Source of the DNA: a virus
DNA: 64,000 bases
Reading direction: 5' to 3' (one strand)
Virus record (IMG/VR): IMGVR_UViG_3300008108_007099
Span: 1-64,000 of that record
Positions 1,618 through 62,470 of the stretch are shown piece by piece (the first letter of the stretch is position 1; every line of letters begins with the position of its first letter). Under the pieces are notes generated by a model, which was not told the DNA's origin, made no database searches, and saw only the letters and a program-made list of their open reading frames with translations. The position numbers and the translations under genes are program-made.

Positions 1618-4600
1618 ATGACAAATACGCCTATATCAGGCGGATATTCATTTGTAACTTTGGCAATGACGCCCGGTGACTCTGCAACTTCTGCATATGA
1701 CGTGCTTTGTTCTCCGACTGATGTACGTATTGTAGGAACCGCAGTTGGTACTGCCACTGTGTATACAATTGTTGGAGGAGTTCCGACCCCGTATCCATTT
1801 ACAAATACTTCATTTGACCAAATCTGGACTTTAAATACTGGGGATCAACTTGCAATTTATGTTGCAGAGCCAGACAGCGTTAGCGGAAACATTACATATA
1901 TTACGACAACACCGACTCCAACAACGACAGCCGCCACGCCAACTCCAACACCAACTGATAGTCCGTTGCCAACAACCAGCGTCACAGAGAGTCCATCTCC
2001 TACACCTAGTGAATCACCTTCGCCGACACCAACTGATAGTCCTACTCCTAGTCCTAGCATGTCCGAAAGTCCATCGCCTACACCTAGTGACTCGCCGAGT
2101 CCAACCCCAAGCGAAAGCCCAACGCCTTCCCCCAGTCCTTCTAATAGTGCAAGTCCTACACCGAGTCCTTCGCCTAGTGAAAGCCCAACGCCTTCCCCCA
2201 GTCCTTCTAATAGTGCAAGTCCTACACCGAGTCCTTCGCCTAGTGAGAGTCCAACGCCGTCCCCCAGTCCTTCTAATAGTGCAAGTCCTACACCGAGTCC
2301 TTCTCCTAGTGAGAGTCCAACGCCGTCCCCCAGTCCTTCTAATAGTGCTTCGCCCACACCGAGTCCTTCGCCTAGTGAAAGCCCAACGCCTTCCCCCAGT
2401 CCTTCTAATAGTGCAAGTCCTACACCAAGTCCTTCTCCCAGTGTGACTGAAAGTCCTACCCCTTCACCAAGTCCCTCTAATAGCGCTAGCCCAACGCCTA
2501 GTCCCTCACCTAGCGATAGTCCCACACCTTCACCAAGTCCTAGCAACAGTGCTTCGCCAACACCAAGTCCTTCTCCCAGTGTGACTGAAAGTCCAACGCC
2601 TTCTCCCAGTCCCTCTAACAGTGCATCACCAACACCAAGTCCATCTATTTCCCCTTCAGTAACTCCTAGTCCAACTCCTAGCCCATCAGCGGCACCAACA
2701 CAAGATCTATTCGTTTGGGGCGGTAATTCATCTGGACAACTAGGACTTGGAAACGTTGTCCCAAGAAGTAGTCCAGTAATATTAACGGGTGCAAATTTCC
2801 AAAACATACCATTTGGCGCTAATGCCGTTGGCGCATTGCAAGTCAATGGCGAAATGTATGTTTGGGGCGATAATACCTTCGGGCAGCTAGGATTAAATGA
2901 TACCACTAACAGAAACAGTCCTGTAGTATTAGCAGGAAGCTTTTCACAAGTTTCAATAAATAGCACCTCTGCTGGTGTAAGAAAAGACGGCACTTTATGG
3001 TCATGGGGAAATGCCGGCACCTACGGCGCTACCGCTTTAAATACTGTACTCTCCAATAGCAGTCCATTACAAATAGGAAGCAGCAGTGATTGGCTCAAGG
3101 TAGTTACCAGATATTCACCCAATACCTTAATGGCAATAAAGACTGACGGCACTCTCTGGGGCGCTGGCAATAACTCTAACGGCTGCTTAGGAGACGGCAC
3201 TACTGTAAATAGAAGCAGCTTAGTTCAGAGTGGATCTGATAATAATTGGCAGGATATTCAAGTTGGAGTTAATTTTGCTGTAGGATTAAGAAAAGATGGT
3301 ACGATTTGGACCGTAGGGGCAGGCTTATCAGGCAATCTTGGAAACAATAGTGTCGCCGACAGGTCTAGCTGGATACAAGTTGGTGCCTCCAATAATTGGG
3401 TTGCAATTAGTTGCAAACATCAACCCGTTTTGGCATTGAATAATTTGTCAGAATTGTATGTTTGGGGAAATGGAAGCACCGGTGGAACCGGCCTAAATGC
3501 AGTAACCAGTGTGTCTTCGCCAACCTTGCTCATGACAAATGTTTCTTACTTTAGCGCAGGACCGTCTTTCGGATCTGCCATTAAAAATAACAACACATTA
3601 TGGACATGGGGCGTAGGAACAAACGGAAGACTTGGCTTAAATAGCACAATAAATGTTTCTTCCCCAACGCAAGTTGGATCGAATTCTAGCTGGATAGGTG
3701 TTGAGTGCAATTTTGATACTACCATGGCATTATACACTTATTTAACTCCAGTTCCAACCGCGACTAGTACTCTCACACCAACTCCAACGCCTTCCGTTAC
3801 GTCAAGTCCTACTCCAACGCCAAGTTATTCAGAAAGTCCTACACCTAGCCCTTCACCGACACCAACCGACACACCTTCACCAACACCAAGTCCTACACCT
3901 AGTCCTTCAGCTACGGCTATGCCATTAACTTGTCCTCAAGGAGCAATGTATTTTGATGGGAGCAACGTGAGTTACCTTAGTATTCCAGATAATGCGTCTC
4001 TTAACCTAGGAACCGGAAATTTCACAATTGAGTGGTTCCAGAATATGTCCTCTAGTTCTGATGCTGATGCCCTTGTTTTCTCTGTGGGTGTATCGCCATC
4101 AGCAGTTATAGGATTTGGCATCGAACAACCAATTGGCGATCCATCAAATGCCACTATGACATTCTATGAAAACAGCGGCTCTGCTGTTGTCAATACGCTT
4201 CCTAGAAGTTACATTTTTGGCAACTGGTTTCACATAGCTATTTGCCGAGCGGCAGGGGTAATTAGATTCTTCCTAAACGGCCAGCAATTTAATTATATTA
4301 ACAGCACCTTTAATATTACTTTTGGTGGAGCACCTTTATCTATTGGTTGCGAGCTGTCTACTCCTGCAACCAATATGTTCAAAGGTAACATCACTAATTT
4401 CAGATGGATAAAGAATAATGCTCTTTACACCTCTAACTTTAGTGTTCCCGCAACTCCATTAAGCGCCGTTACTGGAACTGGATTGTTATTAGATAGTTTA
4501 ACGCCAGCAACAGTAAGCACTGATACTTCTGGGAACAATAATACTGTAAATAACAGCAATGTAATTTATACAGCTTGTAACGGCACTACTGCTACGCCAG

Positions 4601-7600
4601 TTCCAACTAATAGCCCGACACCGACAGCTACCAACGCAATCACAGCTAGTCCCACACAAACTCCTACAAATACTGTTACACCAATACCAACTGGAACGCC
4701 AATTCCTACAACATCACCGACACCAGCTGGACCTACTCCAACGCCCTTCGTGGGACCTCTAAGCTGCCCAACCACTAGCGATGGCTTTGCAACATTTAAT
4801 GCCATATTTGGAACAACTTGGATAATTGAAAATAATAATAATTATGTAGTTGGCACAGGGGATTATACAGTAGAAGTATTTGCCAATCCTTATGCTAGCG
4901 GTTCTGCCGCAATTTATTGGTCTGTCGGTGGATTCTACTTTACTATGTACTCATTCTTTGGCTCTCCTGTAGAACCAAGACTTTATTACGATGGAAGTAA
5001 TTACATAGCTTTCCCGACTATTTCTGCTGCCAGTTACCTCACCAACAGGTGGAGACATTTAGCTATAACCAGAAGTAATGGCGTAACCTATATGTGGTTG
5101 GACGGAACTCTCTGGGGTCAGTCTAGTACGGCTTATGACATGCAAGATGGAGCCAGCGAGTTGTGGATTGGCGGAAACTCAAATGATTCAATATTCTGTT
5201 TCGGCGGTCAAATGACAAACTTCCGCTACTTAGTTGGAGCGGCTGTTTATACTCAGAACTTCACGCCTTCTACGCCATTGGCCAATTTGAATGGCACCAA
5301 GTTGTTGCTATTAACATCAACAGCTCAAACAATCAATACAGACAGCAGCAGTCTAAATAAAACAGTTACATCCATAAATGGCATGATTTATACTGGCTGC
5401 AATGGAACTACACCAACACCGACTCCGAGCGTGACAAGAAGTCCAACCCCAACACCCAGTCCTTCTGCAACACCTCAAGCAGCCTTCCTGCAGTGTCCGG
5501 GTGCTAACGGATCTTATATATTTGCCGCAAGCCAGCTAGAAGTACCTTATAACAATGGTCTAACCATTGGAACAAGTGATTATACAATTGAATGCTTTAT
5601 GTATCCGACTGGATTTGGCGTACAAGGCACGCTATTTGCTTTCGGTCCATATTCCGGCGGCATATCACTAGAGTTTGTTGGATTTGGAGCACAAAAAGGA
5701 ATCAGACTTTACAGCCAATCTATTGGCGCTCAGGTGCTTGGCACTTTGACCACTAACTACTACAACCAATGGAGCCATGTGGCGCTAGTTAGAAGCTCAG
5801 GCGTTACAAGTCTTTATCTTAATGGCGCATGGCAAGGCAGCACATCGGCTTCGTATGATATCAATGACACCACCAGTTCACTGTGGATTGGAAATGATGG
5901 CAGTCTTGATAGCGGTGTAAGTTTCGGTGGAAACATAACAAGCTTCCGTTGGACTAAGGGAAATGCTATTTATACCAGTAATTTCACACCTCCATCTTAT
6001 CCATTAACAGCGCTTACCGGAACTGAATTGTTGCTAAACACAAGTTCTGCCAGTGGCATAACTACTGACGATAGTGGATACAATAGAACTGTAGTCAATG
6101 ACAATGTGAGCTTTAGCGTCTGTCCAGCAACGCCGACACCAACACAGAGCCCGAGTGTCACACCTAGCCCAACTCCTTCAGGAACTCCAAGTCCAACTCC
6201 TAGTTTCACACCGAGTCCAACTCTGAGCCCTACACCTAGTAACTCGCCAAGCCCGACACCTAGCTTTACGCCTAGTCCAACACCTAGTCCTTCTATTAGT
6301 CCGACTGTTACAGAAAGTCCAACACCGAGTCCTTCACCTTCGCCAAGCAATTCACCAACTCCCACACCAACTCCAATAGGAGGATTCTTATTCTCGACGG
6401 GAATTAATCAATTCGGGCAAATTAACTTCAATGATGATGTAAACCGATCCAGTTGGACACAAGCTGGTTCCGACAAGTGGCTAAAAGTATCAACCGGTTA
6501 TGGTATATGCACTTTCGTTAAACGATTTGATTCTACTTGGTGGGTAACAGGTTATAACCAATATGGCACTCTTGGTATTGGAACTCTTCAAGATAAGAGT
6601 AGTTATGTCCAGTTTAGTTCTAGCACTGACTGGAAGGACATATATACGAATGATTATTCTACATTCGGCGTTAAGAATGATGGCACACTGTGGAGTTGGG
6701 GTGCTGCGTATCTAAATGGCAGGGATGTGGCCTCAAGTAGCCCAATGCAGGTAAATCTGCCTTCAACTGTTAAATCATTCTCTATAACACAAAATGGCAT
6801 TTTGACGGCATTGAATGACGGCAATGTTTATGCTATAGGAATTAATAACAATTACAGATATACGGACTCTACTCCTATGTATGCTTTGTTGTCTAGTCCT
6901 ACGATGATTCTTGGTGGTGGCGTTTGGGCTAGTGCAACCAGTGGATATTCTTCTAGCCTCTTCATAAAGAATGATGGAACACTTTGGGGCGTAGGAGCGA
7001 ACGCTTATGGTATGCTATTCCAACCTTCAAGCTTCGTGCGAGCATCGACTCCAATTCAGATTAGCGTCGATACCAATTGGGAAAAAACTCAATCTATTAA
7101 TGATGGTAGCTATTTTGGATTGAAAACTGACAGTACTTTTTGGGTTTGGGGCCAAAACGCTTATGGTCAATTGGGCACAAATAATACAATTTCATATAGC
7201 AGTCCTGTTCAGGGAACTTCATTGACATGGAGGCAAGTACATGCTTGTAGCTACAATGTAGCTGGCATTGAAGCTTCTACTGGGCAGTTATATGTTTGGG
7301 GTCAAAACACTTATGGTCAGGCCGGTAATCAAAACACTAATTCTATAAGTTCTCCAACACAAGTATCCGTTTCACAAGTTAATAGCTGGGCATATGTGGG
7401 TGGCGGTTTCGGCAATTTCTCTGCTATCGGGGATTTATATCCGACTCCTACGCCTACAAGTACAGAAGCAACCTTAACACCTACTCCTTCACCAAGTGTA
7501 ACTGCTAGTCCTACGCCTAGTCCTTCGCCTTCTCCAAGTGTTACCGAGAGTCCAACACCTAGTCCTTCACCTTCACCAAGTGTTACCGAGAGTCCAACAC

Positions 7601-10600
7601 CTAGCCCCACACCAAGTCCTTCAGCAACTGTGACACCTCAATCTTTCAATATATGGGGTGCAAATTATGATGGTCCAGCAGGAAACAATTCTGTAGTCAA
7701 CTTTACCTCCCCGGTAATTTGGGCCAGCAATGTACAATACAAACAAGTTTCTTACGGTAGAACTGAAACAGCATTCATCAAGAATGATGATACATTGTGG
7801 TTATCCGGAAACAATGCATACGGTCAACTTGGCATTAATTCTACGGTAAATAAAAGTTCCCCAGTACAAGCAATTACAGGCGGTTCTTGGATATTTGCTA
7901 GTGCTGGTGCAACAGTTCTTGCAATAAAAGCTGACGGCACTCTTTGGGGATGGGGTTACAACTATTATGCAACAGTTGGAAACAGCACCAAAAACGTGTA
8001 CGTATCAACCCCTGTACAGATAAGTGCAGCAACTAATTGGGTATCTTGCACAACATCTCAGAGAACGGCATATGCTATTAATTCCCTAGGGCAGATGTAT
8101 GTTTGGGGATACAATGGCAACGGAACTTATGGCACAAATACCACAGTAGAAGCAAGCAGTCCTGTACAAGGACCAACTAATAAATCATGGTCTCAAGTAG
8201 CCGGAAGTTCTTTCGGTTCTACTATTGCCTTGGCAACGGATGGCACTGTCTGGACTTGGGGCAATAATTACAGAGGATTTTTGGGTAATAACACAGCCAT
8301 TTCTAAATCCACGCCTGTTCAAGTAGGTTCAGCTACGAACTGGGCTAAAGTAGCATCCGGTTACTGGCACGCCGTTGCTTTGAAAAATGATAACTCTTTG
8401 TGGGTATGGGGATATGGAGGCGACGGCGCACTTAGTCAAAATAATACTATTAATTACAGTTCGCCAGTACAAATTGCCGGTAATTGGCTCGACGCAACTG
8501 GTGCATATGATGCTACTTGGGGCATTAAGTCTGACAATACATTTTGGGCCTGTGGTGGAAACGGATCAGGAGAACAGCCATTTACAGGCGCAAGCAGAAG
8601 CAGCATGATTCAAGCTGGTGGCGCAGGAACTTATTTGTCGTTTGTAAAAAATATATGTGATGCTTTTGGCGGTATTGCTCGAATTTCGCCTCCTACAGCA
8701 TCTCCAAGTCCTTCTGCCACACCAACGCCAACACCAACACCTAGCGGAACCGGTCCTACACCAAGCCCGAGTGCTACCGGACCTACTCCGACTTCGACGC
8801 CTACTCCACAAACCTTTAACGTCTGGGGCGCAAATTATGATGGAACAGCAGGAAACAATTCTGTAACAAACTTTACTTCACCAGTTACTTGGGCAAGCAA
8901 TGTAACATACAAGAAAGTATCTTATGGCAGAACTGAAACTGCATACATAAAGTATGACAATACATTATGGCTGTCTGGAAACAATGCTTACGGACAATTA
9001 GGAATAAATTCCACTTCAAATAGAAGTTCATACGTTCAGGTAATTACTGGAGGAGAATGGTCTTATGTATCGTCAAATCAGGTGACATTGGCTATAAAAT
9101 CAGATGGGACCTTGTGGGGCTGGGGCTATAATTACTTTGCAAATATTGGTAATAATAGTAAGGTTTATGCATCTTCACCGGTTCAAATCAGTGCGGCAAC
9201 AAATTGGGTATCTTGCACATCTTCTCTTAGAACATCCTACGCCATCAATTCTCTAGGACAACTTTATGTTTGGGGCAATAATGGTTCGGGACAATATGGT
9301 CTCAATAATACAACTGATGCAAGCAGCCCTATTCAAGGTCCTACTAACAAATCTTGGAGTCAAGTAGCAGGCAGTTCTTACGGTTCTACTATTGCTTTAG
9401 CAACAGATGGAACCGTCTGGACTTGGGGCAACAACTATAGAGGATTTTTAGGAAATAACACAGCCACTTCTAAATCAACACCCGTACAAGTAGGCTCTGC
9501 AACAAACTGGAGTAAGGTTTCTGCTGGATACTATCATGCTGTTGCTATGACAAATGACGGATCGCTTTGGGTGTGGGGACATGGCGGTTATGGACAATTA
9601 GGTCAAAATACGGCTGTAAATGCCAGTTCCCCAGTGCAGATAGCCGGTATATGGTACGATGCAACAGGTGCAACACAAAATACTTGGGCTATAAAATCCA
9701 ACAATACATTGTGGGCATGTGGTAGCAACAGTAGCAACCAACAGCCAATTTCTGGCGCTGCAAATATCAGCAGTATAACTCAAGTTTCTGGTTCTTCTCA
9801 GTATTTGAATTTTGTTCCTGTAAACGATAACGCATTTGGCGGTATAGCAAGTATTTCAACTAGCTTACTTTCAACACCAACGCCAACTCCTTCCCCAACA
9901 CCGGCAGCTTTTGAAAGCTGGTATTTCTGGGGACAGAGCAACAATGGTCAAATGGCTTATGATAGCACAAACACGGTATTAAATTTATACAACTATTATC
10001 CAACTAGTGTTTATGATAATTTATACACTGGGACTGCTACAGTATTCATTAAGAAAGACGGCACCATGTGGGGAGCTGGTCTAAATACCACCGGCGGCTT
10101 AGGAATCAACGATATCATAAATCGTTCCAGCATGGTCCAGATAGGTTCTGGATATACAAGTGCAGCGATAGGACTAGCACAAAATTATTTCCTTAAACCT
10201 GACGGCACATTATGGGCATCTGGCACCAACAGTTCTGGTCAATTGGGCATAAATTCAGCAGTGAATGTTAGCAGTCTGGTGCAAGAATCGCTAGGTAAAA
10301 CTGACTGGGCTATGGTATCCACTGGCAATGGTGGCGCAGCAGCAATAGATACTTCAGGACGATTATGGACAGTAGGAAGTGCCAATAATGGCGCTCTAGG
10401 AAACAATACAGGCACCGGCAACAAATCTAGTTTCATACAAATTGGTGCAGATACAACTTGGTCTACGGTTTCCTACGGCAATGCCAGATGTGCAGCACTA
10501 AAGACAGATGGAACCATATGGTCATGGGGATCGAATAGTCAGGGTTCATTAGGTACTGGAGATGCTGCGTCCCGAAGCAGTCCAACACAAATTGGCATAG

Positions 10601-12846: not shown

Positions 12847-12857
12847 AAAGGTGAAAT

Positions 12858-13040
12858 ATGGAACAGTTTAAATGCTCATGTTGGAAATGTGGATGGGAAA
12901 GAACATCCACTAATGGTCAAGCGTCTTTCAACGATTTGACACCTGCACCTTCCGCTGACCCGAATAATCCGGCTGTGCTGAAAAGGTACAGGTGTCCTTC
13001 GTGTGATCGAATTGTAAGAGCTATGCCAGTTACTTCGTAA
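12858..13040 (+). CDS. Small zinc-ribbon-like protein (60 aa)
   Basis: CSCWKC and RCPSC Cys pairs; AAGGTG SD-like sequence upstream. Confidence 0.6.
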   Translation: MEQFKCSCWKCGWERTSTNGQASFNDLTPAPSADPNNPAVLKRYRCPSCDRIVRAMPVTS

Positions 13041-15689: not shown

Positions 15690-15692
15690 TTA

Positions 15693-18077: not shown

Positions 18078-18088
18078 TAGGATAGAGT

Positions 18089-20248: not shown

Positions 20249-20260
20249 TAAGGAAGAACT

Positions 20261-27169: not shown

Positions 27170-27229
27170 AAGAATTTTGGTTCATTTTATCATAAATATG
27201 GTTAAGTAATATTTTTAAGGAGCATTTCG

Positions 27230-31681: not shown

Positions 31682-31735
31682 TAACAATACTGAACTGATA
31701 TATGAAGGTAACCAGATAGGAATATAGGGAAAACT

Positions 31736-36031: not shown

Positions 36032-36034
36032 AAA

Positions 36035-42000: not shown

Positions 42001-42913
42001 TGGCATAGCATCTGGCGGAATCGTAGGAGAAATGATTGCCGACAACGCAATCACAACAAATGATATTGCATCGGGACAAGTGACAGGCGCTAAAATTGCC
42101 GCTACCACTGTAGCAAATGCAAATCTCGTAAACAGTGCTGTTACAATAGCCGGTTCTTCTACGGCACTTGGTGCAAGCTGGGCCGCAGCAGCCCTAACAA
42201 CAGCCAGTGGTCTTCTAGCCGGCACATACTATCCATCAGGTGCTCTGACCATCGGCATAGCCTCTGGCGGAATTACGAGCGAACTAATTGCAGATAATGC
42301 GGTTGGAACTAATGAAATTAGTAACGGATCAGTTACTAATGCCAAATTGCAAAATAGCGCAGTCACGATTGCTGGCTCATCTACTTCTCTCGGCGGTAGC
42401 TGGGCGGCTCAAGCTCTTACAACAGCAAGCGGACTAGCAGCAGGAACATACTATCCATCAGGCGCTTTGACGATAGGTATTGCTACAGCCGGTGTTGTAA
42501 CTGCCATGATTGCTTCTGGCGCAGTTGGTAGCAACCAAATAGCTTCTGGCGCTGTCGGCGAACTACAGATGTCCAACACAGTTGCCAACAAGACAATTAT
42601 TGGCGATATTCAGACAATAAGTGCCCAAACAGGCGCTTACACGTTAGCATCTGGTGACGCCGGTAAACTAATTACAGTTAATGCAGCTGGCGCAACCATA
42701 GTCACAATACCAACAAACGCTACTGTACCTTTTGCGGTTGGATCACACATCGACTTCATTCAGCTTGGTGCTGGACAGGTCACAATTAGCGGCAATACTG
42801 GTGTAACCATAAATTACACTCCCGGCAACAAGCTTAGAACCCAATACGCTGGTGCTTCTGTAATCAAGATTGCCACAGATACTTGGTGTTTAGTTGGCGA
42901 TATTTCAACATAA
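36035..42913 (+). CDS. Giant fibre-like repeat protein (2292 aa)
   Basis: Many TIAGSSTALGGSWAA.ALTTASGL.AGTYYPSG modules; Gly-rich beta-roll-like block at ~41020-41570; C-terminal YTL...DAGKLI...F.VG..I...QLGAGQVT domain typical of phage fibre tips. Confidence 0.75.
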   Translation: MAVYTLQQFNDAVAAVCPITGVTVSGNGVLGYFPAAGATSGQLSAANGVVATYSGQVTSGTPQGPVASGSFNAAILFSGTVVSPNMGSGSILSNSIGSGAVTSPKLDVGAVGANAIASGAITSGKLADNAVFGNMVASGAITANKLGIASVMNLNLSSGSITNDKLVNSTVTIAGSSTALGGSWAAQSLTAASGLSSVTYYPSGTAIFGIASGGIVAQMMGSGSVTTNAIASGSITANLLASGAVTDIVGSGSVTSGDVGIGAINNLNIASGTISNDKLVNSAVTINGASTALGGSYNNSTLTLGAGLAGGSYNGSGAVTASVASGGITSQMLADSAVASGDVAIGAINNQNIASGTVANDKLTNNSVTIAGSSTALGGSWAAQSLVHASGLSAVTYYPSGSAVVGIASGGIVAQMMGSGSVTANAIASGSVTADALASGAISAIVGSGAITSGDLGLGAVNNLNVASGTLSNDKLVNSSVTIAGSSTALGGSWAASALTTASGLLAGTYYPSGSLTIGIASGGITSELLADGSVNTNDIASGAVGTNQIASGAITGTSISSGAITGANIASGTITGSKLAAATVQNANLANSSINIAALNVPLGGSWTPQALTTASGLLAGTFYVSGALTIGIASGGITSQLIADGAVNTNDIASGAVGTNQIASGAVTGTNIAATTVANANLVNSAVTIAGSSTSLGGSWAAQSLVHASGLSAVTYYPSGSAVVGIASGGIVAQMMGSGSVTANAIASGSVTADALASGAISAIVGSGAITSGDLGIGAVNNLNIASGTVANDKLANSTVTIAGSSTSLGGSWAAAALTTASGLAAGTYYPSGALTIGIATNGVVTAMIASGAVGTNQIASGAVTGTNIAATTVANANLVNSAVTIAGSSTSLGGSWAAAALTTSSGLLAGTYYPSGALTIGLASGGITSQLIADGAVGTNELATSAVTNDKITSGTVANDKLANSSVTIAGSSTALGGSWAAQSLTAASGLSSVTYYPSGSAVIGIASGGIVAQMMGSGSVTTNAIASGSVTTNALASGAISAIVGSGAITSGDLGIATVNNLNIVSGTISNDKLVNSSITINGASTALGGSYANAALTLGTGLTGGSYNGSGAVTAAIASGGITNEMIADNAITTNDIASGQVTGAKIAATTVANANLVNSAVTIAGSSTALGGSWAAAALTTASGLAAGTYYPSGALTIGIATAGVVNAMIASGAVTGTSIAASTVANANLVNSAVTIAGSSTSLGGSWAAQALTTASGLLAGTYYPSGALTIGLASGGITSQLIADGAVGTNELATSAVTNDKITSGTVANDKLANSTVTIAGSSTALGGSWAAQSLTAASGLSAVTYYPSGAAVIGIASGGIIAQMMGSGSVTANAIASGSVTANALASGAISAIVGSGAITSGDLGIGAINNLNISSGTISNDKLANSSITINGASTALGGSYANAALTLGTGLTGGSYNGSGAVTAAIASGGITGEMIADNAITTNDIASGQVTGAKIAASTVANANLANSTITIAGSSTALGASWAAAALTTSSGLTAGTYYPSGALTIGIASGGIVAQMMGSGSVLSGAIGSGQIGPNHLSSGISVTTATKISIEGTNASGLYPVVFTSGIASSNQAYSCSGLFYNPALRSLDIVCYLSGGTTGGVSIFPGNNGTATIVGQNAARNGASTGAFSTIIGRDALASGSSEANSVIIGYRAAWGSQGTGDNVIIGKEAAANAVGTSLSVLIGDSVASRGFGNGTFGNVAIGAAAGTTADGVLMYESVHVGRQAGSAGPALASGTSGGSNIYLGAYTMRGSDGGRWNEIVIGCNMSGLGTNTITMGRTDTASGRIYGNINFPYGISFPSGGITSGGVFTASLGSGLVRSGAISSGQIGINHLAAGAWSANQVLGQDGAGNLDWITPTTTVNSGGITSGMLGIASVNNINIVSGTISNDKLANSAVTIAGSSTSLGGSWAAQALIHASGLSAVTYYPSGQAVVGIASGGIVGEMIADNAITTNDIASGQVTGAKIAATTVANANLVNSAVTIAGSSTALGASWAAAALTTASGLLAGTYYPSGALTIGIASGGITSELIADNAVGTNEISNGSVTNAKLQNSAVTIAGSSTSLGGSWAAQALTTASGLAAGTYYPSGALTIGIATAGVVTAMIASGAVGSNQIASGAVGELQMSNTVANKTIIGDIQTISAQTGAYTLASGDAGKLITVNAAGATIVTIPTNATVPFAVGSHIDFIQLGAGQVTISGNTGVTINYTPGNKLRTQYAGASVIKIATDTWCLVGDIST

Positions 42914-42958
42914 TTAACTATATTATGGTAATTCGTAGGAGAAAGCGGTAGATTTAAA

Positions 42959-45193
42959 ATGCGTAGAGTAATGATATATTCGAGGCCTCAATTCACCTCT
43001 ACCCCTACGCCCACAGCTTCTCCTACGCCATCGCCTTCTCCATCTGCAACACCTGAACCAACGCCAGTTGCCTTAAATGCATTTTTGTACGGTTGGGGCG
43101 GCAACGGATACGGCCAACTTGGAAATAACACTTCTACTGATACCAGATTTGCTGTGCAAACTGTGATGTCATCCAATTTCTGGAATACAGTTTCTGATAC
43201 TATTGACGGCAGCACATATGCAATTAAGACCGATCTAAGCATGTGGACATTTGGCTACAACGCATACGGTCAATTGGGCGACAATACAACTACAGTCAGA
43301 AGTTCTCCAGTACAAGTAACGGGAAGCAACACCAACTGGGTAAACGTTAACGGCGGATTAAATCACGTTATTGGCATTAAGACGGACGGCACTTTATGGA
43401 CTTGGGGTCAGCTGTGGGAAATAGCAAATGCTGGCCAAACCCATACTTTAGGTCTTGCAGCAAACAATACTCTATGGGCATGGGGCGGAAACGCCTACGG
43501 GGAACTTGGTACATCATCTACTAACAGTGCTTTAACGCCTGTACAGATTGGTACATCTACGGCTTGGAAGTATATAACAGCTGGATTCCAGAATTCTTAT
43601 GCTGTTAAAACAGATGGTTCACTGTGGGGCTGGGGCAGAAACAATCTTGGCCAGCTTGGTCAAAACAATGTAACCAACCTTAGCAGCATGGTTCAGATTG
43701 GGACTGGCAACTGGGTAAGCATAGCTGCCGGCGGTGGTTTTATGCTAGGCGTTAAAAATGATGGCACTATGTGGTCAGTTGGCGATAATACTTTTGGACA
43801 GTTGGGAATTGGATCTAGTACAACTGCATTTAGTAGCATAACACAAGTTACCGTTGGATCTACATCTTGGTCTAGCGTGAGCGCAGGTTATCAATTCGGC
43901 GTTGCGTTGCAGAAAAATGGCACGATATGGACATTTGGAAGAAACCTCTATAGTGCTTTGGGCAATATTGCAAGTTTTGGTTCTACCAGCATAAACACAC
44001 CAGAACAAGTAACTACTACAGGCCTTTCATGGGTTTCAGTGGTTGCAGGCGGATATCATGTAAGTGCCCTAACATTAAGCACTCCTATACCAACAAGCAG
44101 TCCTGCTCCAACACAGGTTCCTACCGCTACAGCTACACCAGCTCCAACATCGAGTCCGGCTCCCACTCCATCTGTTACGCCAGTGCCAACAGCAAGTGCA
44201 ACTCCTGCTCCATCTGCAAGTGCAACACCAGCACCAACTGCAAGCCGTACACCAACACCAACGGCAAGCCCTGTTCCTACGAATACAGCAACACCGGCTC
44301 CAACCGCAAGTGTTACACCGAATCCGACACCGTCGCCGACTTCATTGCCTGCTCCAAGTCCAACTATAGATCCTACTGGCACTACCGTAGAATTGTGCTT
44401 TACAGACGCAGTGACAAGAGTAAATGGCGATATTGGAGCAATTACCTTCTCAGGATTTAATCCTGCATATGGCACCCTATCTGTTGCCTCATATAATTCC
44501 GGCAGCGGTACCTCATGTCTGATTTATGGTTTGAATCGACCTGCATACAGTGATGAAACAGCTATTACTATATCTTATGATTCATCTAACTGCTATCTTG
44601 CAAGGCTAAGTCCTTATCAATGTTTGCCGACCTACAACCTTGTGCCTGTAAATAATACCTCTACCAAGGCACCACCCACACCTACACCAACGCCGTCAAG
44701 AAGTCCTTCTCCGACACCATCGAGAAGTCCTTCGCCAACTCCTTCGCCTTCGCCATCTGCAAGTGCGGCAGCTACGGCCACACCAACGCCTTCACCATCT
44801 GCTACAGGTGGCAGCCCAACTCCCACACCTACAGGATTCGCAGGCTGCTACTCGCAAGATGCTACCGGACTAATGGATGTAACAGCAACTACATATGGAT
44901 TTGACTTTAGCAACCAGTTTACCAAGGGAAGTTCTACATTCTTATTTACGGTACTTGCTGATTGCAATGATATAACATTTACAGTGTTTGTCGATAATCA
45001 GAGTGGCACTGGTGATGTTAAGATAGTTGCGCCAAACGGTGCTGAAACTTTAGTTGGAACTGGCACTACTGGATGCCAGCACTTTACAGGCGTCCAACAG
45101 GGAGAAACTGTAGCCGTAGGTAAAGGCACAGCCGGTGCTACATACGGCGCTGGTACAGTCACAGGCTACATAGTAACTGGCGGCGGTTGTTAA
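42959..45193 (+). CDS. RCC1-repeat protein with S/T/P linkers and C-terminal Cys-containing domains
   Basis: WGxNxYGQLG/SSPVQ blades, TPAPTAS linkers, ends TGGGC*. Confidence 0.8.
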
Positions 45194-45235
45194 TTACTAA
45201 AAACATACTATAATTCTTTATAAAGGAGAAATAGT

Positions 45236-45805: not shown

Positions 45806-46208
45806 CTTTAAAGAGTGCGGAGAGTGCCACAAATGCTGCGAAGGATGGGTGGGAGGAGATGCTTTTGGCGTTCCTTTTCACCCGCATAGACCATGTGCTT
45901 TTCATCAAGGAAAGTGCTTGGTTTATTCATTCAGGCCCGATGTTTGCAAGAAATTCTTCTGTGCATGGGCACAGGGACTTTTTCCAGACTGGATGCGTCC
46001 TGATTTGACTAATGTTCTCATTTCAATAGGCGATTGGAGCAAAGGTCAGTACCTTAAAATAATTTTATGTGACACACCGATGCCGCAAAATGTGGAAGAA
46101 GAGATTAAAAAGTTTATTAATTTGCATAAAACACCGTGCATGGTTCATGATAATGGGAAAACCGATTTATACGGACAGCCAGAATTTATCAAAGAATTTA
46201 CTCAGTAA
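45771..46208 (+). CDS. Cys-cluster protein (YkgJ/CxxCxxCC-like, Zn- or Fe-S-binding)
   Basis: CGECHKCC...C.F....CLVY..RP.VC..F.C.W motif. Confidence 0.7.
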   Translation: MKLPMVSSLPPNFKECGECHKCCEGWVGGDAFGVPFHPHRPCAFHQGKCLVYSFRPDVCKKFFCAWAQGLFPDWMRPDLTNVLISIGDWSKGQYLKIILCDTPMPQNVEEEIKKFINLHKTPCMVHDNGKTDLYGQPEFIKEFTQ

Positions 46209-46900
46209 ACCTTGCTGCAAATCCTTACTTCCTCTTCGGTTTTATCCCTGTTTACTATTGTAGACCCCTCAGAAACATCGTACGCGAACAAACCAAGTTG
46301 CACCTGAGTGTATACATCAGCGCGCATAAAAACATCAATGCTACGAGTGACGCCACTAGCTATAACATTAGCCATTAACCTTCGCGCTATAAAAGGGTCT
46401 ACAGAATAAGCATGCGCCTTGTATAAACAATTTAATCCTTCCCATTTTAAATGGACCGGCACGGGTGCTATTTGTAACTTACCTTGCTGCTGTTCTTCAC
46501 AGCCCAAATATATAATTGCATTTAATGCCGGATGCTCAGTAAATGGCTTTACCATAACTGCATCATGTTCTAAAATTACAATTGGTTCATCGAGTTCGAT
46601 ACACTTAGCCCACAATGACACATGCCCTAAAAATGCAGCTACTTCGCCATTTTTAAGAGCACTATTTGGACACTTTATCCATTTCAACCACGGTTCGTTT
46701 TCCAAGTGTTTAGGAGCAATAATTCCTTCGCCTGTGCCGTCAAAACCATTCCACAGCACGTATTTTTGTCCGACTTCTTCGCAAGATTTTACACAGCGCT
46801 TAGTCATCCTTTCGGATTGAGCGTTTCCCGGCAATGTTAAAATATAAGCCTTATCTACTTTTACGTTATAGGCGTAAGATAAACTTTCTCTCATGTTCAT
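46202..46900 (-). CDS. GT25-like glycosyltransferase
   Basis: FDG...GEVAAFLGHVSLWAKCIELDEPIVILEHDA...AHAY...ID. Start reassigned to 46900 (ATGA overlap). Confidence 0.75.
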   Translation of the reverse strand: MNMRESLSYAYNVKVDKAYILTLPGNAQSERMTKRCVKSCEEVGQKYVLWNGFDGTGEGIIAPKHLENEPWLKWIKCPNSALKNGEVAAFLGHVSLWAKCIELDEPIVILEHDAVMVKPFTEHPALNAIIYLGCEEQQQGKLQIAPVPVHLKWEGLNCLYKAHAYSVDPFIARRLMANVIASGVTRSIDVFMRADVYTQVQLGLFAYDVSEGSTIVNRDKTEEEVRICSKVY

Positions 46901-47580
46901 TCTTTGGTTTTCCTTAATTCCGGAATAGTAGTTTGGCCCGGTACATCCATCGCAAATATGCCAAAGCAAAGAAAACTGCAACGGTTCAAGCTCATCATGC
47001 AATCGGCTGAGGTGTGTATTCCTCTCTCTAACACATGTGAAACTAAATTCTTAGCAGCGCACGGATCAATACTGTAAGCGTGCGTTCTAAGTAAGTGTCT
47101 ATAGTCTTTATTAAGTTGCGCATGAGGAGGAATTATACTCCAAAAGTTATTTCTAACCATCTCTTGACATCCGAGATATATAATACTATTTATGGCCATA
47201 TGATGGGTAAATTTTTGCAACATTACCGCGTCATGTTCCAACGCAATTAACGGTTTATCTAATTCTATACAACGGCACCACAAGCTAAAGTGACTGAGCA
47301 AGCAACAAACTTCTTGAGGTGTCAATTCATGATTTATTTGCTTTAACCAAGAAAGCCAAGTTTTTTCCTGAGCATGCGGAGGGACAACTATTCCCTGCAT
47401 CATATTTCCAGTGCCATCAAAAGCATCCCAGTATTCAGCTTTCTGGCCAACCTTTAGGCACGAATCCATACACCTTCGTGCCATTTTTTCGCTTAGATCG
47501 TGGTTTCTGATACGTATGATGTACGCATTCTCCACTTCGGGATTGTGCGACCAAGACAGAGTTTTGTTTAATACTTTCAT
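46897..47580 (-). CDS. GT25-like glycosyltransferase (paralog)
   Basis: AFDG...QEVCCLLSHFSLWCRCIELDKPLIALEHDA...THAY...AD. Confidence 0.75.
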   Translation of the reverse strand: MKVLNKTLSWSHNPEVENAYIIRIRNHDLSEKMARRCMDSCLKVGQKAEYWDAFDGTGNMMQGIVVPPHAQEKTWLSWLKQINHELTPQEVCCLLSHFSLWCRCIELDKPLIALEHDAVMLQKFTHHMAINSIIYLGCQEMVRNNFWSIIPPHAQLNKDYRHLLRTHAYSIDPCAAKNLVSHVLERGIHTSADCMMSLNRCSFLCFGIFAMDVPGQTTIPELRKTKE

Positions 47581-47581
47581 A

Positions 47582-48376
47582 TTAATATTTTAGGTTAAAT
47601 TGATTGTAATGAGATTCCAAAAAAGATCCCAACACTTCTTTGGCTGGCCTGCTTGTTTTGCTCAAATTCTTTCTTATATCATGAAGATTTTTAAGCCCCC
47701 AAGCAGCGTCTTTTTCTTCAGCGCAATAATTATGAATATTATCAAATTGATGATCTGCAAATTCATCTATTTCTAAAAATTTATACATATTGCGCAAAAC
47801 GTTTTTAGGATTTTTGATTAAATCATCATATTCAACAATGAACAAATTACTCAAGCAGTTTTTTATGCCATGGGTCATGCTATTGTAAGGGTCGGATACA
47901 TAATTTTCCCAAAGTATTTTTGCGCGGTTGGCAGTATTAACAGGCAATCCTTTATTGCGCAATTCAATATCTACAAAATTATTTGGGTCAGAATTCTTTT
48001 CAATCAGTGCAATGTAGCTTGTTAAAATATCAGCTACTGGTCTATTAGTGCAAATAATTTTCGGATTAGGATCGAAGAAAATTCTTAACGGAACAATATT
48101 TTTTGGATAACCTCTATGCTTATCTAAAATGTAAGGAGTTGTTATGTTTTCATAAAAACCGGATATTAAAGCCTTATAGATATTTTTTGATATAGTATGA
48201 TAATCAAATGTATATGTCTTGTTCACCATATCTAAAGCGCCATTTGTGGCGCAAAGAAGATCAAGAATTGGACTAGTTGGTGTTACTGTAAATCTTGTAT
48301 CTTGACCAATAAGACTTCCTAAAAGCGTAGATCCGCTTCTCGGTAATCCAGATAAGAAGAAAACTTTTTTATTCAC
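47582..48376 (-). CDS. Sulfotransferase
   Basis: 5'-PSB loop FLSGLPRSGSTLL, DK.R, 3'-PB-like R...DILTS, and VEYDDL...P. Confidence 0.85.
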   Translation of the reverse strand: MNKKVFFLSGLPRSGSTLLGSLIGQDTRFTVTPTSPILDLLCATNGALDMVNKTYTFDYHTISKNIYKALISGFYENITTPYILDKHRGYPKNIVPLRIFFDPNPKIICTNRPVADILTSYIALIEKNSDPNNFVDIELRNKGLPVNTANRAKILWENYVSDPYNSMTHGIKNCLSNLFIVEYDDLIKNPKNVLRNMYKFLEIDEFADHQFDNIHNYCAEEKDAAWGLKNLHDIRKNLSKTSRPAKEVLGSFLESHYNQFNLKY

Positions 48377-49727
48377 TTTTCAAACCTAAAGTTTTTACTA
48401 CCAATTGCTTTAGTTCTGTCGCGACATCACTCCAAATTTTAGGAGTTTTTTGTCTCAACAAAGTCATGTTTTTACCAAACCAAGGAGTTTTATCATTTTT
48501 AGTGTTGAAAATGTAATAGTCTGAGCAGGGAGTAAGAACAATACACTTTTTGTTTAATGCTCCTGCTATGGTTGAACTGACTGTCGGACATGTGATTGTG
48601 AGATCGAATGAATTTATGTAGTCCGCCATATCTGACAAACTATCCAACTCTCCTGACAAATCAACTATTTCTGGATAGTTTGCTAATTCATCCATGCATT
48701 CATTTTTTTGAATACTATAGAAGGTAACATCTAGGTCTTTCAGAGCCTCGTAAATTTCGGCAAGTTTAAAGTTTCTATAACGCGGATTAGGATTGCCGGC
48801 CCACCTAAGTCCTATTTTCTTTTTGCCCTTAAGTCTCTTTTTACCAGCTTTTAAATATGGACCTGTCCATAAATCTTTTTCATTTAAAGATAAAAGTATT
48901 GGCAAATACTGTGAGTATGTCCATTTGTAATCAGCGTATTTTTCTGGATCGAATTTAGTAATTATACTAAATCCATTTTTTTCATAGAATTCTGGGAGAC
49001 CTTTTCTGCCCTCTTTTTCGGCATTTTCGTAAAAGACATTGTATAGCTTTGGGTTTATCCCCATGTCTTTTAGATTATTTAAAAATCTTATGTTGATTAT
49101 CTCATCGCCTAGTCCAGCCTCAAGATATACAATCAAATTTTTGCAATCAGGAGTGCCTTCCCAGAACTCTAGCGGCAATTCAGTCCTGTTATGATATCTT
49201 CCATTTCTTTCTAGTCTTTGCACTTCATCTTTAGACATTATTACATGCTTCAACCCGTCTTTGAAATTTCCATTTCTAAGTAAATGGTGCGAAATACATG
49301 CATCATATTTTATTTGTTCAAAATTATTCAAATCTTTTCTGTCTATACTTTTGAGAACTTGGTAAGATTCTTCTTTTTGATTATTGTCATATAAGCAATT
49401 GGCTTTTTCAAACAATATTGCATTTACCGCTGATGAGTCGTTGACACTTGAAAGTATTTCCAACGCTTTTTCAAAATCATTTTCAATTTTGTAAGCTTGG
49501 TACAAAATAAAATTAATTGAAGACTTTTGTTCTTCCGGCAATTCTTCTAAAGCTTTATTTCCATGAAAAATACAAGCTTGCATGTCATTTTGATTAAAAA
49601 ACAGTTCAGTCAATAATGCATGCTCTAAAGGCTTGAACGCGCTTTTAGATAAAACTTTCAAAATATCGTTTAGCAATTCTTCTTCGCCGAAAATTTTAAG
49701 AGTGCGAAGAACAGCATATACATCCAT
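48369..49727 (-). CDS. TPR-like repeats plus GT9-like (GT-B) glycosyltransferase domain
   Basis: Helical N-terminal half; WEG...LIVYLEAGLGDEI..RF; KIGLRWAGNP; DLTIT...AGAL; TPWF..MTLLRQ. Confidence 0.75.
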   Translation of the reverse strand: MDVYAVLRTLKIFGEEELLNDILKVLSKSAFKPLEHALLTELFFNQNDMQACIFHGNKALEELPEEQKSSINFILYQAYKIENDFEKALEILSSVNDSSAVNAILFEKANCLYDNNQKEESYQVLKSIDRKDLNNFEQIKYDACISHHLLRNGNFKDGLKHVIMSKDEVQRLERNGRYHNRTELPLEFWEGTPDCKNLIVYLEAGLGDEIINIRFLNNLKDMGINPKLYNVFYENAEKEGRKGLPEFYEKNGFSIITKFDPEKYADYKWTYSQYLPILLSLNEKDLWTGPYLKAGKKRLKGKKKIGLRWAGNPNPRYRNFKLAEIYEALKDLDVTFYSIQKNECMDELANYPEIVDLSGELDSLSDMADYINSFDLTITCPTVSSTIAGALNKKCIVLTPCSDYYIFNTKNDKTPWFGKNMTLLRQKTPKIWSDVATELKQLVVKTLGLKSE

Positions 49728-51226
49728 TACTTAGTAATCCCTTTTTCTTTAAGAACTTCGCCTAGCTGAACCATAGCCTCGTCCCAAACGCGAGGAGATT
49801 TCTGTCGGACCAAAGTGACATTATCTCCATACCAATGTGTTTTATCTCCAACTTGGCACCACAAATAATATGCACTAATTGGCACCATAACTATTACTTC
49901 TTTGCCTTGGCTGGCAGCCATATGCGCAATGCTAGTGCAACTTGTAATTACCAAATCCAAATTGCTTATCAAAGCGAAAGTATCTTCCAAAGTTTCAAGT
50001 TTGTCTTCCAGATTAACCAGTCCGGGGAAATCCGGCAATTCTTCAATGCCGTCATGCTTTTGTAGACTATAAAAGTCTGCGTCAACGTCCTTCAAAACTT
50101 TATGCAACTGCTTCAACGGATATGAACGATGCAGGTCATGCTCATAGTGCTTGCTACCGCGCCATCGCAGTCCAATTTTGAGCTTCTTGCCTTTAAGCTT
50201 CCATTTCTTCTTGAACTCAGGAGATGCAGACAGGTATGGACCGTACCACAAATCCTTATACTGACAATTTAGATATATTGGCAGCCGCATGGACAAAGTC
50301 CAATATACATCCTTAATACCAGACTTCTTTACTTCACTCAAATCTTCAATTACTGGAATATTGTTCTTTTGCAAAATTTGAGTTAAACCAACACGATCGT
50401 TCTTGTCCCTGTCAGACTGTGTCGCGGTATACCAATAAGCGTTTATGCCTCTGTCTTTGAGATGCTTCATAAATCTGCTATTTATGATCTCATCGCCAAT
50501 TCCGGCTTCGCCATACACAATCAAATTCTTACAGTCAGGACTGCCTTCCCAAAATGTAAAACCAAGTTTTTTATTTCTTTCTTGCAAAGCTTCGGCTTGC
50601 CAAAGCTTCATCTTCGCGCCTTCTAACATAAAATTACGAAGACCTTCTTGGAACCTGTCTTCGTAAAGATAGTATGTTCCTAAATTGAACTTAATTTTTA
50701 TCTTGGTCTCATCATCAAGTTCATCAGCGTGATTAAACAGAGCATCTTCTAGAATATTTTTAGCTTCTGGTTTGCGTTCGAGAAGGTAAAGGCTGTATGC
50801 CTTGTCTAATGCTAAATTAACAGAAGGCGTAAATTTTTCCTGAATCTTGATATAAGCCATTGCCTTTTCAGGATAATTGCATCGGTTGTAAATGTTAATT
50901 AAATTACTTCGAAGAACATTTGTAAACTCATTGGCTGGAGATATGGCAATCGCCTTTTCTCCAGTTCTCATAGCACCATGCCAATTCTTAAGTTTAAAAT
51001 AACACTTGCTTACATTTTCTAATTGAAAAAATGTGCGAGAGTTTTTCTCAAAAGCGCCTACAACTCTATCTGCCAACTCTGGTTCGCCTAGTTTTTCCAA
51101 AGTTACAATAAATGGCTCCAAATCATTTATTCCCATATTATCCTGCTGCATAGCAGGATTCATTTGCTGCTGTTGAGGCAAATTTGGGTATGGAGGAGGA
51201 GTTCTGGGGAATTGACCTTCGTTCAT
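49727..51226 (-). CDS. TPR-like repeats plus GT9-like glycosyltransferase domain (paralog)
   Basis: EAGIGDEI, KIGLRWRGS, RSYPL, LDLVITSCTSIAHMAA, WYGDNVTLVRQ. Confidence 0.8.
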   Translation of the reverse strand: MNEGQFPRTPPPYPNLPQQQQMNPAMQQDNMGINDLEPFIVTLEKLGEPELADRVVGAFEKNSRTFFQLENVSKCYFKLKNWHGAMRTGEKAIAISPANEFTNVLRSNLINIYNRCNYPEKAMAYIKIQEKFTPSVNLALDKAYSLYLLERKPEAKNILEDALFNHADELDDETKIKIKFNLGTYYLYEDRFQEGLRNFMLEGAKMKLWQAEALQERNKKLGFTFWEGSPDCKNLIVYGEAGIGDEIINSRFMKHLKDRGINAYWYTATQSDRDKNDRVGLTQILQKNNIPVIEDLSEVKKSGIKDVYWTLSMRLPIYLNCQYKDLWYGPYLSASPEFKKKWKLKGKKLKIGLRWRGSKHYEHDLHRSYPLKQLHKVLKDVDADFYSLQKHDGIEELPDFPGLVNLEDKLETLEDTFALISNLDLVITSCTSIAHMAASQGKEVIVMVPISAYYLWCQVGDKTHWYGDNVTLVRQKSPRVWDEAMVQLGEVLKEKGITK

Positions 51227-51768
51227 TTGATCACCACCATTTTCACTTCAGTGCTTCTAATTACGTTGTTGAACCTTTTGGAAATTTCTGCAAGTTCTTG
51301 GAATTTAGAATTCCTGACCATATCAAGGTAATCGTCATCCGCTTGAATGTCATGTGACAAAATTTCAAAATCAATATCTACAAGATTGGCTATGCCATTA
51401 CTCTTGCCCATGAAATCTTGATACCATGAGCAATATTTCTTACTAAACTGTCGCAAAATTCCTAGGGTTATAGGCCTTTTGCAATCAATATCATCTAAGA
51501 AAGATTCGTGTCGCGGATGAACACTTCTAATTTCAATAGTTGCTCCGCTTTCACATACACGATAAATTTCTTTCAGTAGTTTTAAGAAACCATCGCCTAT
51601 GTATTCCAATACGTAGTTGAGAACTACATGGTCAACAGAGTTTTCTTTGTAGGGCAACTTGCCAGATTCTAGGTCTAAAACCTTATCTGGTTCTACGGAA
51701 GAGTCCTTATCAATATTCAAAAAGCCATCAAGCTTTTTAACACCACAGCCAAGATTGAGTTTTTGCAT
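51223..51768 (-). CDS. Class I SAM-dependent methyltransferase-like protein
   Basis: KLNLGCG...NID...VLEY...KEIYRVC..GA. Confidence 0.8.
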   Translation of the reverse strand: MQKLNLGCGVKKLDGFLNIDKDSSVEPDKVLDLESGKLPYKENSVDHVVLNYVLEYIGDGFLKLLKEIYRVCESGATIEIRSVHPRHESFLDDIDCKRPITLGILRQFSKKYCSWYQDFMGKSNGIANLVDIDFEILSHDIQADDDYLDMVRNSKFQELAEISKRFNNVIRSTEVKMVVIK

Positions 51769-61222: not shown

Positions 61223-61255
61223 TTTTAACTCCAAGTACATAACTATTTTAGTACT

Positions 61256-62454: not shown

Positions 62455-62470
62455 GACATAGGAGTAAATT

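Follow-up and report, generated by a model that had tools for sequence, protein, structure and literature searches.

Why does a tailed phage carry two sets of glycosyltransferase genes among the genes of its tail fibres, and what do the encoded enzymes modify? The question is raised by the first 64 kb of the IMG/VR virus record IMGVR_UViG_3300008108_007099, the stretch of 64,000 nucleotides that we analysed and refer to as the window. The whole record comprises 91,491 bases at a CheckV completeness of ~15%, so the phage genome is probably several hundred kb in size. Since T4-type genes for a gp15-like tail sheath stabiliser and a gp18-like tail sheath are present, the region belongs to the structural module. 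We read its part from 1618 to 51768 as a tail-fibre module in the genome of a huge phage, into which two soluble glycan-tailoring cassettes are set, here called A (13030-17368) and B (46202-51768; Table 1). An initial annotation of the window had proposed that the phage builds methylated and sulfated glycans on its own giant fibres. Our follow-up supports a modified version of this proposal, to which we assign a probability of roughly one half: the phage-encoded cassettes glycosylate virion proteins of the phage itself, cassette B acting on RCC1 propeller proteins and cassette A on Ser-Gly-repeat fibres.

The enzyme inventory of the initial annotation, seven glycosyltransferase-type genes, a sulfotransferase and four methyltransferase domains, proved to be correct. 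Most assignments follow from Pfam, while the two enzymes with tetratricopeptide repeats (TPR) were assigned by fold and the GT2-like enzyme of cassette A by motifs. The latter scored 17.5 bits against GT2 (PF00535; cut-off 23.3) and gave no sequence match in a profile search of the PDB; because the score is sub-threshold but the DDD and GxGC motifs are present, we label it 'GT2-like'. The best NCBIfam match of the triple methyltransferase was a sugar O-methyltransferase (MftM), far under the cut-off. In cassette B, the two GT25 proteins are paralogues (41% identity), as are the two TPR proteins (32% identity), whose C-terminal halves match no Pfam family, and the sulfotransferase has a GLPRSGST loop near its N-terminus. 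The 106-nt overlap of the two GT25 genes vanishes with a start of the downstream gene at Met37 (46894), two bases past the upstream stop and at the position where the alignment of the paralogues begins. The described arrangement also holds, with both cassettes on the minus strand, gene ends that overlap or abut, and ~25 kb of Ser-Gly-rich fibre genes between the cassettes. None of ten enzymes contains a membrane-like segment (no 19-residue stretch with a mean hydropathy >1.4), and Pfam families of flippases, polymerases, GtrA/B-type proteins or initiating transferases were not found within the window.

TPR-fused glycosyltransferases had been taken to fit protein substrates, and structure prediction confirmed such a protein-directed architecture (TPR plus GT-B). 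An AlphaFold model of the 499-aa TPR protein, built on 36 homologues, reached a predicted local distance difference test score (pLDDT) of 86 and comprises a TPR solenoid (residues 33-221) followed by a GT-B domain (residues 227-499). With the whole chain as query, Foldseek ranked SPINDLY and OGT first (8dtf, 8fe6). Structural alignment of the catalytic domain put GT9 enzymes first (3tov with Z 16.9 over 246 aligned residues, WaaF with 16.2, WaaC and TibC with 15.4 each), and the next structural class followed at Z 13 or less. TibC (4rb4), tied with WaaC, aligned over 246 residues with a root-mean-square deviation of 3.3. A profile search of the PDB with the TPR-GT9 family found TPR proteins only, so the catalytic domain is recognisable by fold alone. 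Neither TPR protein of the window matched PF01075 (GT9) at E <= 0.01, a Bdellovibrio homologue reached E 0.26 against the same family, and Pfam matches to Glyco_transf_41 (GT41) were absent from both window proteins. Since the fold is of GT9 type but a PF01075 match is lacking, we call these enzymes TPR-GT9-like rather than members of GT9.

We then asked which genes accompany these enzymes in other phages. Scanning IMG/VR with a TPR-GT9 alignment revealed relatives on 505 contigs. The best 80 loci were mapped with 10-kb flanks by tblastn of the window proteins and represent 35 lineages at 90% identity. RCC1 was detected in the flanks of 29 of the 35 lineages, the sulfotransferase in 28, a small cysteine-cluster (CxxCxxCC) protein in 25, the methyltransferase in 23, an Fe(II)/2-oxoglutarate (2OG) oxygenase in 16 and GT25 in 12; a Ser-Gly fibre was found in one. 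Among the best 80 loci, RCC1 matches were co-directional with the TPR-GT9 gene without exception. A recurrent order on one strand was RCC1 ... oxygenase, RCC1, (sulfotransferase), CxxCxxCC protein, methyltransferase, TPR-GT9, (two GT25), with open reading frames (ORFs) tightly packed or overlapping, for example at loci L018 and L021. The reverse test gave a corresponding result: TPR-GT9 was present in 61 of 78 loci chosen by RCC1 alone and, where such loci were at least 18 kb long, in 22/24, with a sulfotransferase in 19/24. The module is also present in a cultured phage, Synechococcus phage S-SRM01, where one strand encodes a baseplate wedge, a long tail-fibre distal subunit, three RCC1 proteins, a TPR homologue, a 2OG oxygenase, a sulfotransferase, a glycosyltransferase and a sugar epimerase. 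Its sulfotransferase and TPR protein are 46.6% and 34% identical to those of the window, respectively.

Cassette A keeps different company. When loci were picked by the triple methyltransferase, Ser-Gly fibres lay within 10 kb in 10 of 14, and three others end at the contig end. Conversely, 15 of 18 loci picked by the Ser-Gly fibre alone (fibre identity 38-74%) contained cassette A. The usual order on one strand is fibre, GT2-like, GT4, GT4, methyltransferase. In the L007-L015 lineage both cassettes are adjacent, bordered by Ser-Gly fibres at one end and by collagen-like proteins at the opposite end. The expected co-occurrence of cassettes and fibre-type genes was therefore seen for both cassettes, each with a partner of its own: Ser-Gly fibres for A and RCC1 for B. 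The earlier picture of one undifferentiated system serving all fibres had to be given up, since cassette A follows the Ser-Gly fibres but cassette B has them in the single lineage mentioned above.

The same arrangement as in the window, at 60% identity, occurs on a 135-kb contig (L087) in an Acidimicrobiaceae metagenome-assembled genome, with Ser-Gly fibres, a methyltransferase, two TPR-GT9 genes, a sulfotransferase, two GT25 genes, the CxxCxxCC protein and the oxygenase. This is probably a phage contig binned with the bacterium, or a hint at the host. Collagen-like (collagen-triple-helix) fibre genes lie upstream on the same strand at 27 of the 80 TPR-GT9 loci (e.g. L014 15-6128 and L018 1619-4192), and one of the fibre genes carries a Peptidase_S74 chaperone domain. 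Collagen-like fibres together with GT25 and a 2OG oxygenase recall the glycosylation of collagen hydroxylysine, an association confounded by the relatedness of the loci. For the same reason, near-identical loci, we dropped a direct link between GT25 and collagen-like fibres (14/26 loci with GT25 versus 13/54 without).

Related genes are not restricted to viruses. We scanned prokaryotic genomes, one per species, for relatives of the GT9-like domain and obtained 35 loci, mostly from Bdellovibrionota and some from CPR and methanotroph genome bins. At 22 of these 35 loci, RCC1 genes lie alongside the GT9-like gene in the same direction. The clearest example is the complete chromosome of B. bacteriovorus Bd16 (L094, 7728-15994), on which housekeeping genes are followed by genes for an unknown 1038-aa protein, a GT9-like protein (336 aa, no TPR), a methyltransferase-like protein (188 aa) and two RCC1 proteins of 1091 aa and 1073 aa. 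Both RCC1 proteins start with a twin-arginine-type signal (SRRAFLL). The twin-arginine route carries folded proteins, which fits a modification of RCC1 in the cytoplasm before export.

It is this combination that argues for virion proteins as substrates, because the soluble glycosyltransferases share compact, co-directional operons with a single class of large surface proteins. As the pairing persists across phages at only 35-60% identity and recurs in a predatory bacterium, the simplest account is that the enzymes modify the protein to which they are linked. The RCC1 and fibre proteins as acceptors, the sugars used and the benefit (shielding, solubility or adhesion) are our inference from this linkage. 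Of the original proposal, methylated and sulfated glycans on the phage's own fibres, the inventory, fold and co-occurrence parts are upheld; its sequon arguments and its single-system view are not.

The sequon arguments had treated Ser-Gly pairs and Ser/Thr/Pro-rich (S/T/P) linkers as glycan attachment contexts. RCC1 proteins with such linkers do lie beside the cassettes: RCC1 repeats were identified by Pfam in the 3742-aa and the 744-aa proteins, and their linkers reach 274 aa. In other phages, none of 143 distinct RCC1 ORFs adjoining the cassette contained an S/T/P-rich stretch of even 20 residues, which rules out the linkers as a conserved acceptor site. The five fibre proteins contain 8.4-11.5 SG plus GS dipeptides per 100 residues, compared with <= 2.3 in the enzymes and other window proteins (4.2 in the 167-aa protein as the exception), which makes them 2-5 times richer in Ser-Gly than the rest of the window. 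Ser-Gly pairs are spaced every 5 or 10 residues with I, V or L fixed at positions -2 and +3, and this hydrophobic periodicity indicates a regular beta-structured repeat and not a flexible linker. The repeat is also found in tail fibres and host-specificity proteins of 45-kb T7-like cyanopodoviruses, Lactobacillus phage LP65, roseophages, Arthrobacter phages and others. Because it is widespread in small phages, we regard it as an ordinary fibre building block. A proteoglycan-type sequon, for which Ser-Gly would be expected in a flexible, acidic and non-repetitive setting, was rejected in view of the fixed-position structured repeat and the matches to tail-fibre families.

Two small proteins encoded between the RCC1 gene and cassette B appear to belong to the same system. 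The AlphaFold2 model of the 189-aa oxygenase (pLDDT 85.6) gave top Foldseek matches that are all 2OG oxygenases (E 1.8e-4 to ~2e-3), among them the protein hydroxylases P. putida P4H, NO66 and MINA53, the sugar-acting enzymes HygX and KanJ, and AlkB homologues. The fold is a double-stranded beta-helix, and the family alignment shows no exchange of H72 or E74 and hardly any of the distal His. The Pfam match to PhyH was weak and under the cut-off, and a profile search of the PDB was uninformative (PhyH, E 0.67). For the CxxCxxCC protein, eight cysteines are invariant across the family, including those of the CxxCxxCC motif. PF03692 was matched by 23 of 27 family members (best E 1e-4), and the window's own protein was left unmatched. 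A PDB profile search with it returned nothing informative, and ESM Atlas look-ups for both small proteins led to unnamed viral clusters only. Another protein with a PF03692 domain is FliB, which methylates lysines of flagellin. In relatives, the CxxCxxCC protein is encoded directly upstream of the methyltransferase and TPR-GT9 genes. Gene fusions join further components: at L026 (8582-9448) the oxygenase and the CxxCxxCC protein form one 288-aa ORF, and in Synechococcus phage BUCT-ZZ01 (L004, 8281-9996) a GT9-like domain and a methyltransferase form one 571-aa ORF.

Most likely, cassette B together with the neighbouring 2OG oxygenase and CxxCxxCC protein would modify RCC1 beta-propellers while these are still in the cytoplasm and virions are not yet assembled. 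Substrate choice would fall to the TPR domain and transfer of the first sugar, possibly of heptose type, to the GT9-like domain, after which the other enzymes of the cassette would extend, methylate and sulfate this sugar. Cassette A, with its GT-A enzyme, two GT4 enzymes and triple methyltransferase, would most likely build a methylated oligosaccharide on the giant Ser-Gly-repeat fibres. As to the sugar donor, we searched five large relatives for ADP-heptose synthesis genes. L021 (13592-14908) encodes an HldE-like bifunctional sugar kinase/adenylyltransferase of 438 aa (full-length HldE match of 198.6 bits, under the cut-off of 521). This gene directly follows the sulfotransferase in the same overlapping operon as RCC1, the CxxCxxCC protein, the methyltransferase, TPR-GT9 and two GT25 genes, which hints at an activated heptose-type sugar as donor. 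The 91-kb record of the window phage contains neither an HldE-like nor another ADP-heptose synthesis gene.

Such a mechanism has counterparts among characterised systems. The bacterial autotransporter heptosyltransferase systems TibC/TibA and Aah/AIDA-I (PDB 4rb4, 4rap) likewise consist of a soluble cytoplasmic enzyme of GT9 fold encoded beside a large repetitive surface protein, and TibC and Aah decorate serines of the partner autotransporter before its export. The window's catalytic domain has TibC, a protein heptosyltransferase, in the tied group of its best structural matches, and the HldE-like heptose-activating enzyme in a relative's operon adds to the likeness. In contrast to these systems, the neighbours here are RCC1 propellers and a beta-helix autotransporter of AIDA type is absent; the window enzyme has an N-terminal TPR domain and shares only 7-8% sequence identity with TibC, and sulfotransferase, GT25, methyltransferase and oxygenase genes are added. 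Further precedent comes from GT4 enzymes that glycosylate Ser-rich adhesins. Among viruses, the chlorovirus protein A064R combines two glycosyltransferase domains with a methyltransferase, and Mimivirus glycosylates its fibrils and encodes the collagen hydroxylase/glycosyltransferase L230. In these viruses, too, soluble glycosyltransferases and sugar methyltransferases place methylated glycans on capsid or fibril proteins, and a 2OG oxygenase is paired with a glycosyltransferase for collagen-like proteins; they are viruses of eukaryotes with an unrelated gene order, and we liken them by general description.

The order of an N-terminal TPR domain and a GT-B catalytic domain is shared with OGT and SPINDLY (GT41) and with FlmG, the flagellin O-glycosyltransferase of Caulobacter, whose TPR domain binds its flagellin substrate (PMC7591256). 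The window protein differs from GT41 in lacking a Pfam match to that family and in a catalytic domain that, taken alone, aligns best with GT9, and from FlmG in having RCC1 rather than flagellin genes as partners. Phage glycosyltransferases that decorate the phage's own structural proteins were described for mycobacteriophages (Freeman et al. 2023, cited in PMC12619734 and PMC12801897). As cited in PMC12619734, virion glycosylation by phage enzymes is established for mycobacteriophages only. There, the glycans are reported on the C-termini of capsid and tail-tube subunits of small actinophages, whereas the genes linked to the present, predicted system encode propellers and fibres of huge phages and aquatic T4-like ones. 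Its set of enzymes is also different and larger, adding sulfation, methylation and hydroxylation. Our literature search returned no description of a module of RCC1, GT9-like enzyme and sulfotransferase, and the S-SRM01 genome paper is silent on it; one paper matching 'RCC1' was discarded, as it referred to strain numbers of the Roscoff Culture Collection and not to the propeller protein.

Several points weigh against glycosylation of virion proteins. The support consists of gene linkage and family resemblance throughout, and the RCC1 proteins are putative virion components. Tail-fibre regions are hot spots of accessory genes, which inflates neighbourhood statistics, and the counts include many loci that are relatives of one another or truncated. 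Within the window, the fibre genes are encoded on the plus strand and both cassettes on the minus strand. In LR756511, the nearest huge-phage relative, a TPR-GT9 homologue is missing and the syntenic site is free of a fibre island. Many small phages share the Ser-Gly repeat, and if those of ~45 kb lack such enzymes, as seems likely, folding of the fibres would not depend on glycosylation. Genes for nucleotide-sugar or 3'-phosphoadenosine-5'-phosphosulfate synthesis are missing from the 91-kb record. Finally, GT9 and GT25 are classically families of lipopolysaccharide (LPS) core synthesis, whose glycosyltransferases likewise lack membrane helices.

Glycosyltransferase clusters of cyanophages are routinely annotated as modifying host LPS or DNA, and both readings have to be weighed here. 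The cassettes could remodel envelope glycans of the host (LPS core, O-antigen or exopolysaccharide), for instance to mask receptors so that progeny avoid infected cells and debris; they would then lie beside fibre genes since enzyme specificity tracks the receptor-binding proteins. For this speaks the best-known role of GT9 and GT25 in the LPS core, with PF01755 even described as 'LPS biosynthesis protein', as do WaaC and WaaF among the structural matches of the GT9-like domain and the published reading of cyanophage glycosyltransferase clusters as host-surface modification (PMC12801897). We nevertheless consider host remodelling, the main rival reading, unlikely. It leaves the protein-binding TPR domain on the GT9-like enzymes unexplained, and the cassettes come without flippase, polymerase, initiating transferase or membrane segment. 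Moreover, the linkage is specific to RCC1 within tight same-strand operons with structural genes, and the pairing recurs in Bdellovibrio beside RCC1 proteins with export signals, a setting in which masking a receptor would be pointless. Modification of phage DNA against host restriction is very improbable. Phage glycosyltransferases are often DNA-modifying according to literature cited in PMC12619734, and one methyltransferase domain has a very weak N6_N4_Mtase match (E 0.0019, under the cut-off). But the cassettes lie in the structural module and not in the replication module at 64-91 kb, base-hydroxymethylation genes are absent nearby, and TPR, sulfotransferase, GT25 and the constant RCC1 linkage are foreign to known DNA glycosylation pathways.

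A different objection accepts the linkage and questions the acceptor. The RCC1 propeller may be a lectin-like or scaffolding partner, and the enzymes may decorate another virion protein, such as the capsid or a collagen-like fibre, or a free or secreted glycoconjugate. The collagen-like fibre genes upstream of 27/80 loci would suit this idea, as GT25 includes collagen galactosyltransferases. The module also adjoins different fibre types in different lineages, and partner RCC1 proteins elsewhere, being free of S/T/P linkers, offer no obvious acceptor motif. Yet RCC1 is by a wide margin the most constant neighbour (29/35 lineages) while collagen-like and Ser-Gly fibres vary, and in Bdellovibrio the only large neighbours are the RCC1 proteins and the one unknown 1038-aa protein. 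We judge a mere partner role of the propeller to be rather improbable and retain the glycosylation of RCC1 proteins by cassette B and of Ser-Gly fibres by cassette A as the best account.

Table 1. Features of the window, listed by position, with the evidence for each assignment
Feature	Position	Strand	Evidence and remarks
5'-truncated ORF, Thr/Pro/Ser-rich, with an 82-aa S/T/P linker	2..1522	+	Composition
Adhesin-like protein, 3742 aa, RCC1 propellers, four LamG domains, ten S/T/P linkers	1618..12846	+	Pfam; 3' end converges on cassette A
Cassette A: three fused class-I S-adenosylmethionine (SAM) methyltransferase domains	13030..14712	-	Pfam E 7e-28
Cassette A: GT4 (Glycos_transf_1), EX7E motif EGFGIEILE	14676..15689	-	Pfam 89.3 bits (cut-off 26.4)
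Cassette A: second GT4 (Glycos_transf_1), EX7E motif EPFGLAPVE	15693..16712	-	Pfam 62.5 bits (cut-off 26.4)
Cassette A: GT-A (GT2-like) glycosyltransferase	16709..17368	-	DDD and GxGC..IHR motifs typical of GT-A
First gene of fibre operon, 167 aa	17574..18077	+	Divergent from cassette A; conserved with cassette A in close relatives
Five tail-fibre genes (719, 2302, 1483, 1431, 2292 aa), 5/10-residue [IVL]-x-S-G-x repeat	18089..42913	+	PHROG tail-fibre families
RCC1 propeller protein, 744 aa, three S/T/P linkers, Cys-bounded C-terminal module	42959..45193	+	Pfam
Fe(II)/2OG oxygenase, 189 aa	45236..45805	+	Fold and conserved H-x-E...H triad
Small cysteine-cluster protein, putative CxxCxxCC (PF03692) family, 145 aa	45771..46208	+	Family alignment
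Cassette B: GT25	46202..47002	-	PF01755 33.5 bits (cut-off 24); likely true start Met37 at 46894
Cassette B: GT25 paralogue	46897..47580	-	PF01755 47.0 bits (cut-off 24)
Cassette B: sulfotransferase	47582..48376	-	PF00685 and PF13469, 52.1 and 51.6 bits (cut-offs 22 and 27)
Cassette B: TPR plus GT9-like glycosyltransferase, paralogue a, EAGLGDE motif kept	48369..49727	-	Sequence matches TPR only
Cassette B: TPR plus GT9-like glycosyltransferase, paralogue b, 499 aa	49727..51226	-	Sequence matches TPR only; GT-B by fold
Cassette B: small SAM methyltransferase	51223..51768	-	Pfam
Conserved structural gene upstream of cassette B	51915..52835	-	Matches C-terminal part of PHROG 'head-tail adaptor Ad2'
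gp15-like tail sheath stabiliser (61256) and gp18-like tail sheath (62471)	61256..64000	+	T4-type; gp15-like E 4.5e-19

A near-identity DNA search with two regions of the window against 50,697 phage records gave no match. The closest database phage is LR756511 (L002), an uncultured phage of 595 kb with a gp15 homologue 47.5% identical to that of the window and syntenic flanking structural genes. When L002 (1-15400) is compared with 1618-51768 of the window, the structural genes from 51915 onward are common to both; giant fibres, RCC1 matches or cassettes were not found at the syntenic position of LR756511. As this phage does without the 50-kb block of fibre and enzyme genes, the block behaves as a variable island. 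Beyond the window, replication genes (ribonucleotide reductase, SbcC-like ATPase, helicase and family A polymerase) occupy 64-91 kb of the record. At the opposite end, the truncated ORF ending at 1522 and the 3742-aa ORF from 1618 share the same Thr/Pro/Ser-rich make-up and S/T/P linkers. The former is probably part or a paralogue of the RCC1 adhesin gene after it, and the two may be one gene split by a frameshift or an assembly error.

The motif ACTATWWWW occurs at 17402-17410, 42917-42925, 45207-45215, 51805-51813, 57647-57655 and 61242-61250. In this order, the sites precede cassette A, the 744-aa RCC1 gene, the oxygenase gene, cassette B, gene 57663 and gp15, in each case 14-45 nt before the start, and gene starts of the replication region at 64-91 kb lack the motif. 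Window-wide it is not clearly enriched (23 matches versus 15.5 +/- 3.7 expected). With statistics this weak, it gives a faint hint of a late-promoter element and shared late regulation.

What the window adds to the modules found elsewhere is a further cassette that is linked to a further class of fibres, the presence of both cassettes in one fibre module, and RCC1 proteins with unusual S/T/P tethers. We tentatively propose that the predator Bdellovibrio and aquatic phages, ranging from T4-like cyanophages up to huge phages, have in common a cytoplasmic, TPR-guided GT9-like system that acts on folded RCC1 adhesins, whose sugars are then methylated and sulfated, and that a second cassette does likewise for the giant fibres here. 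Since a cultured phage (S-SRM01) and a bacterium that can be grown (B. bacteriovorus) both have the module, the question is directly testable. If the proposal is true, it would describe a tailed phage whose host-recognition apparatus is coated with sulfated, methylated glycans, and RCC1 propellers would be a new substrate class, and TPR plus GT9-like a new architecture, for bacterial protein glycosylation. It would also provide a testable lead for the surface biology of Bdellovibrio. Such glycans would then sit on the proteins that determine host range in hundreds of abundant aquatic phages, which would change how adsorption, defence evasion and particle stickiness are modelled.

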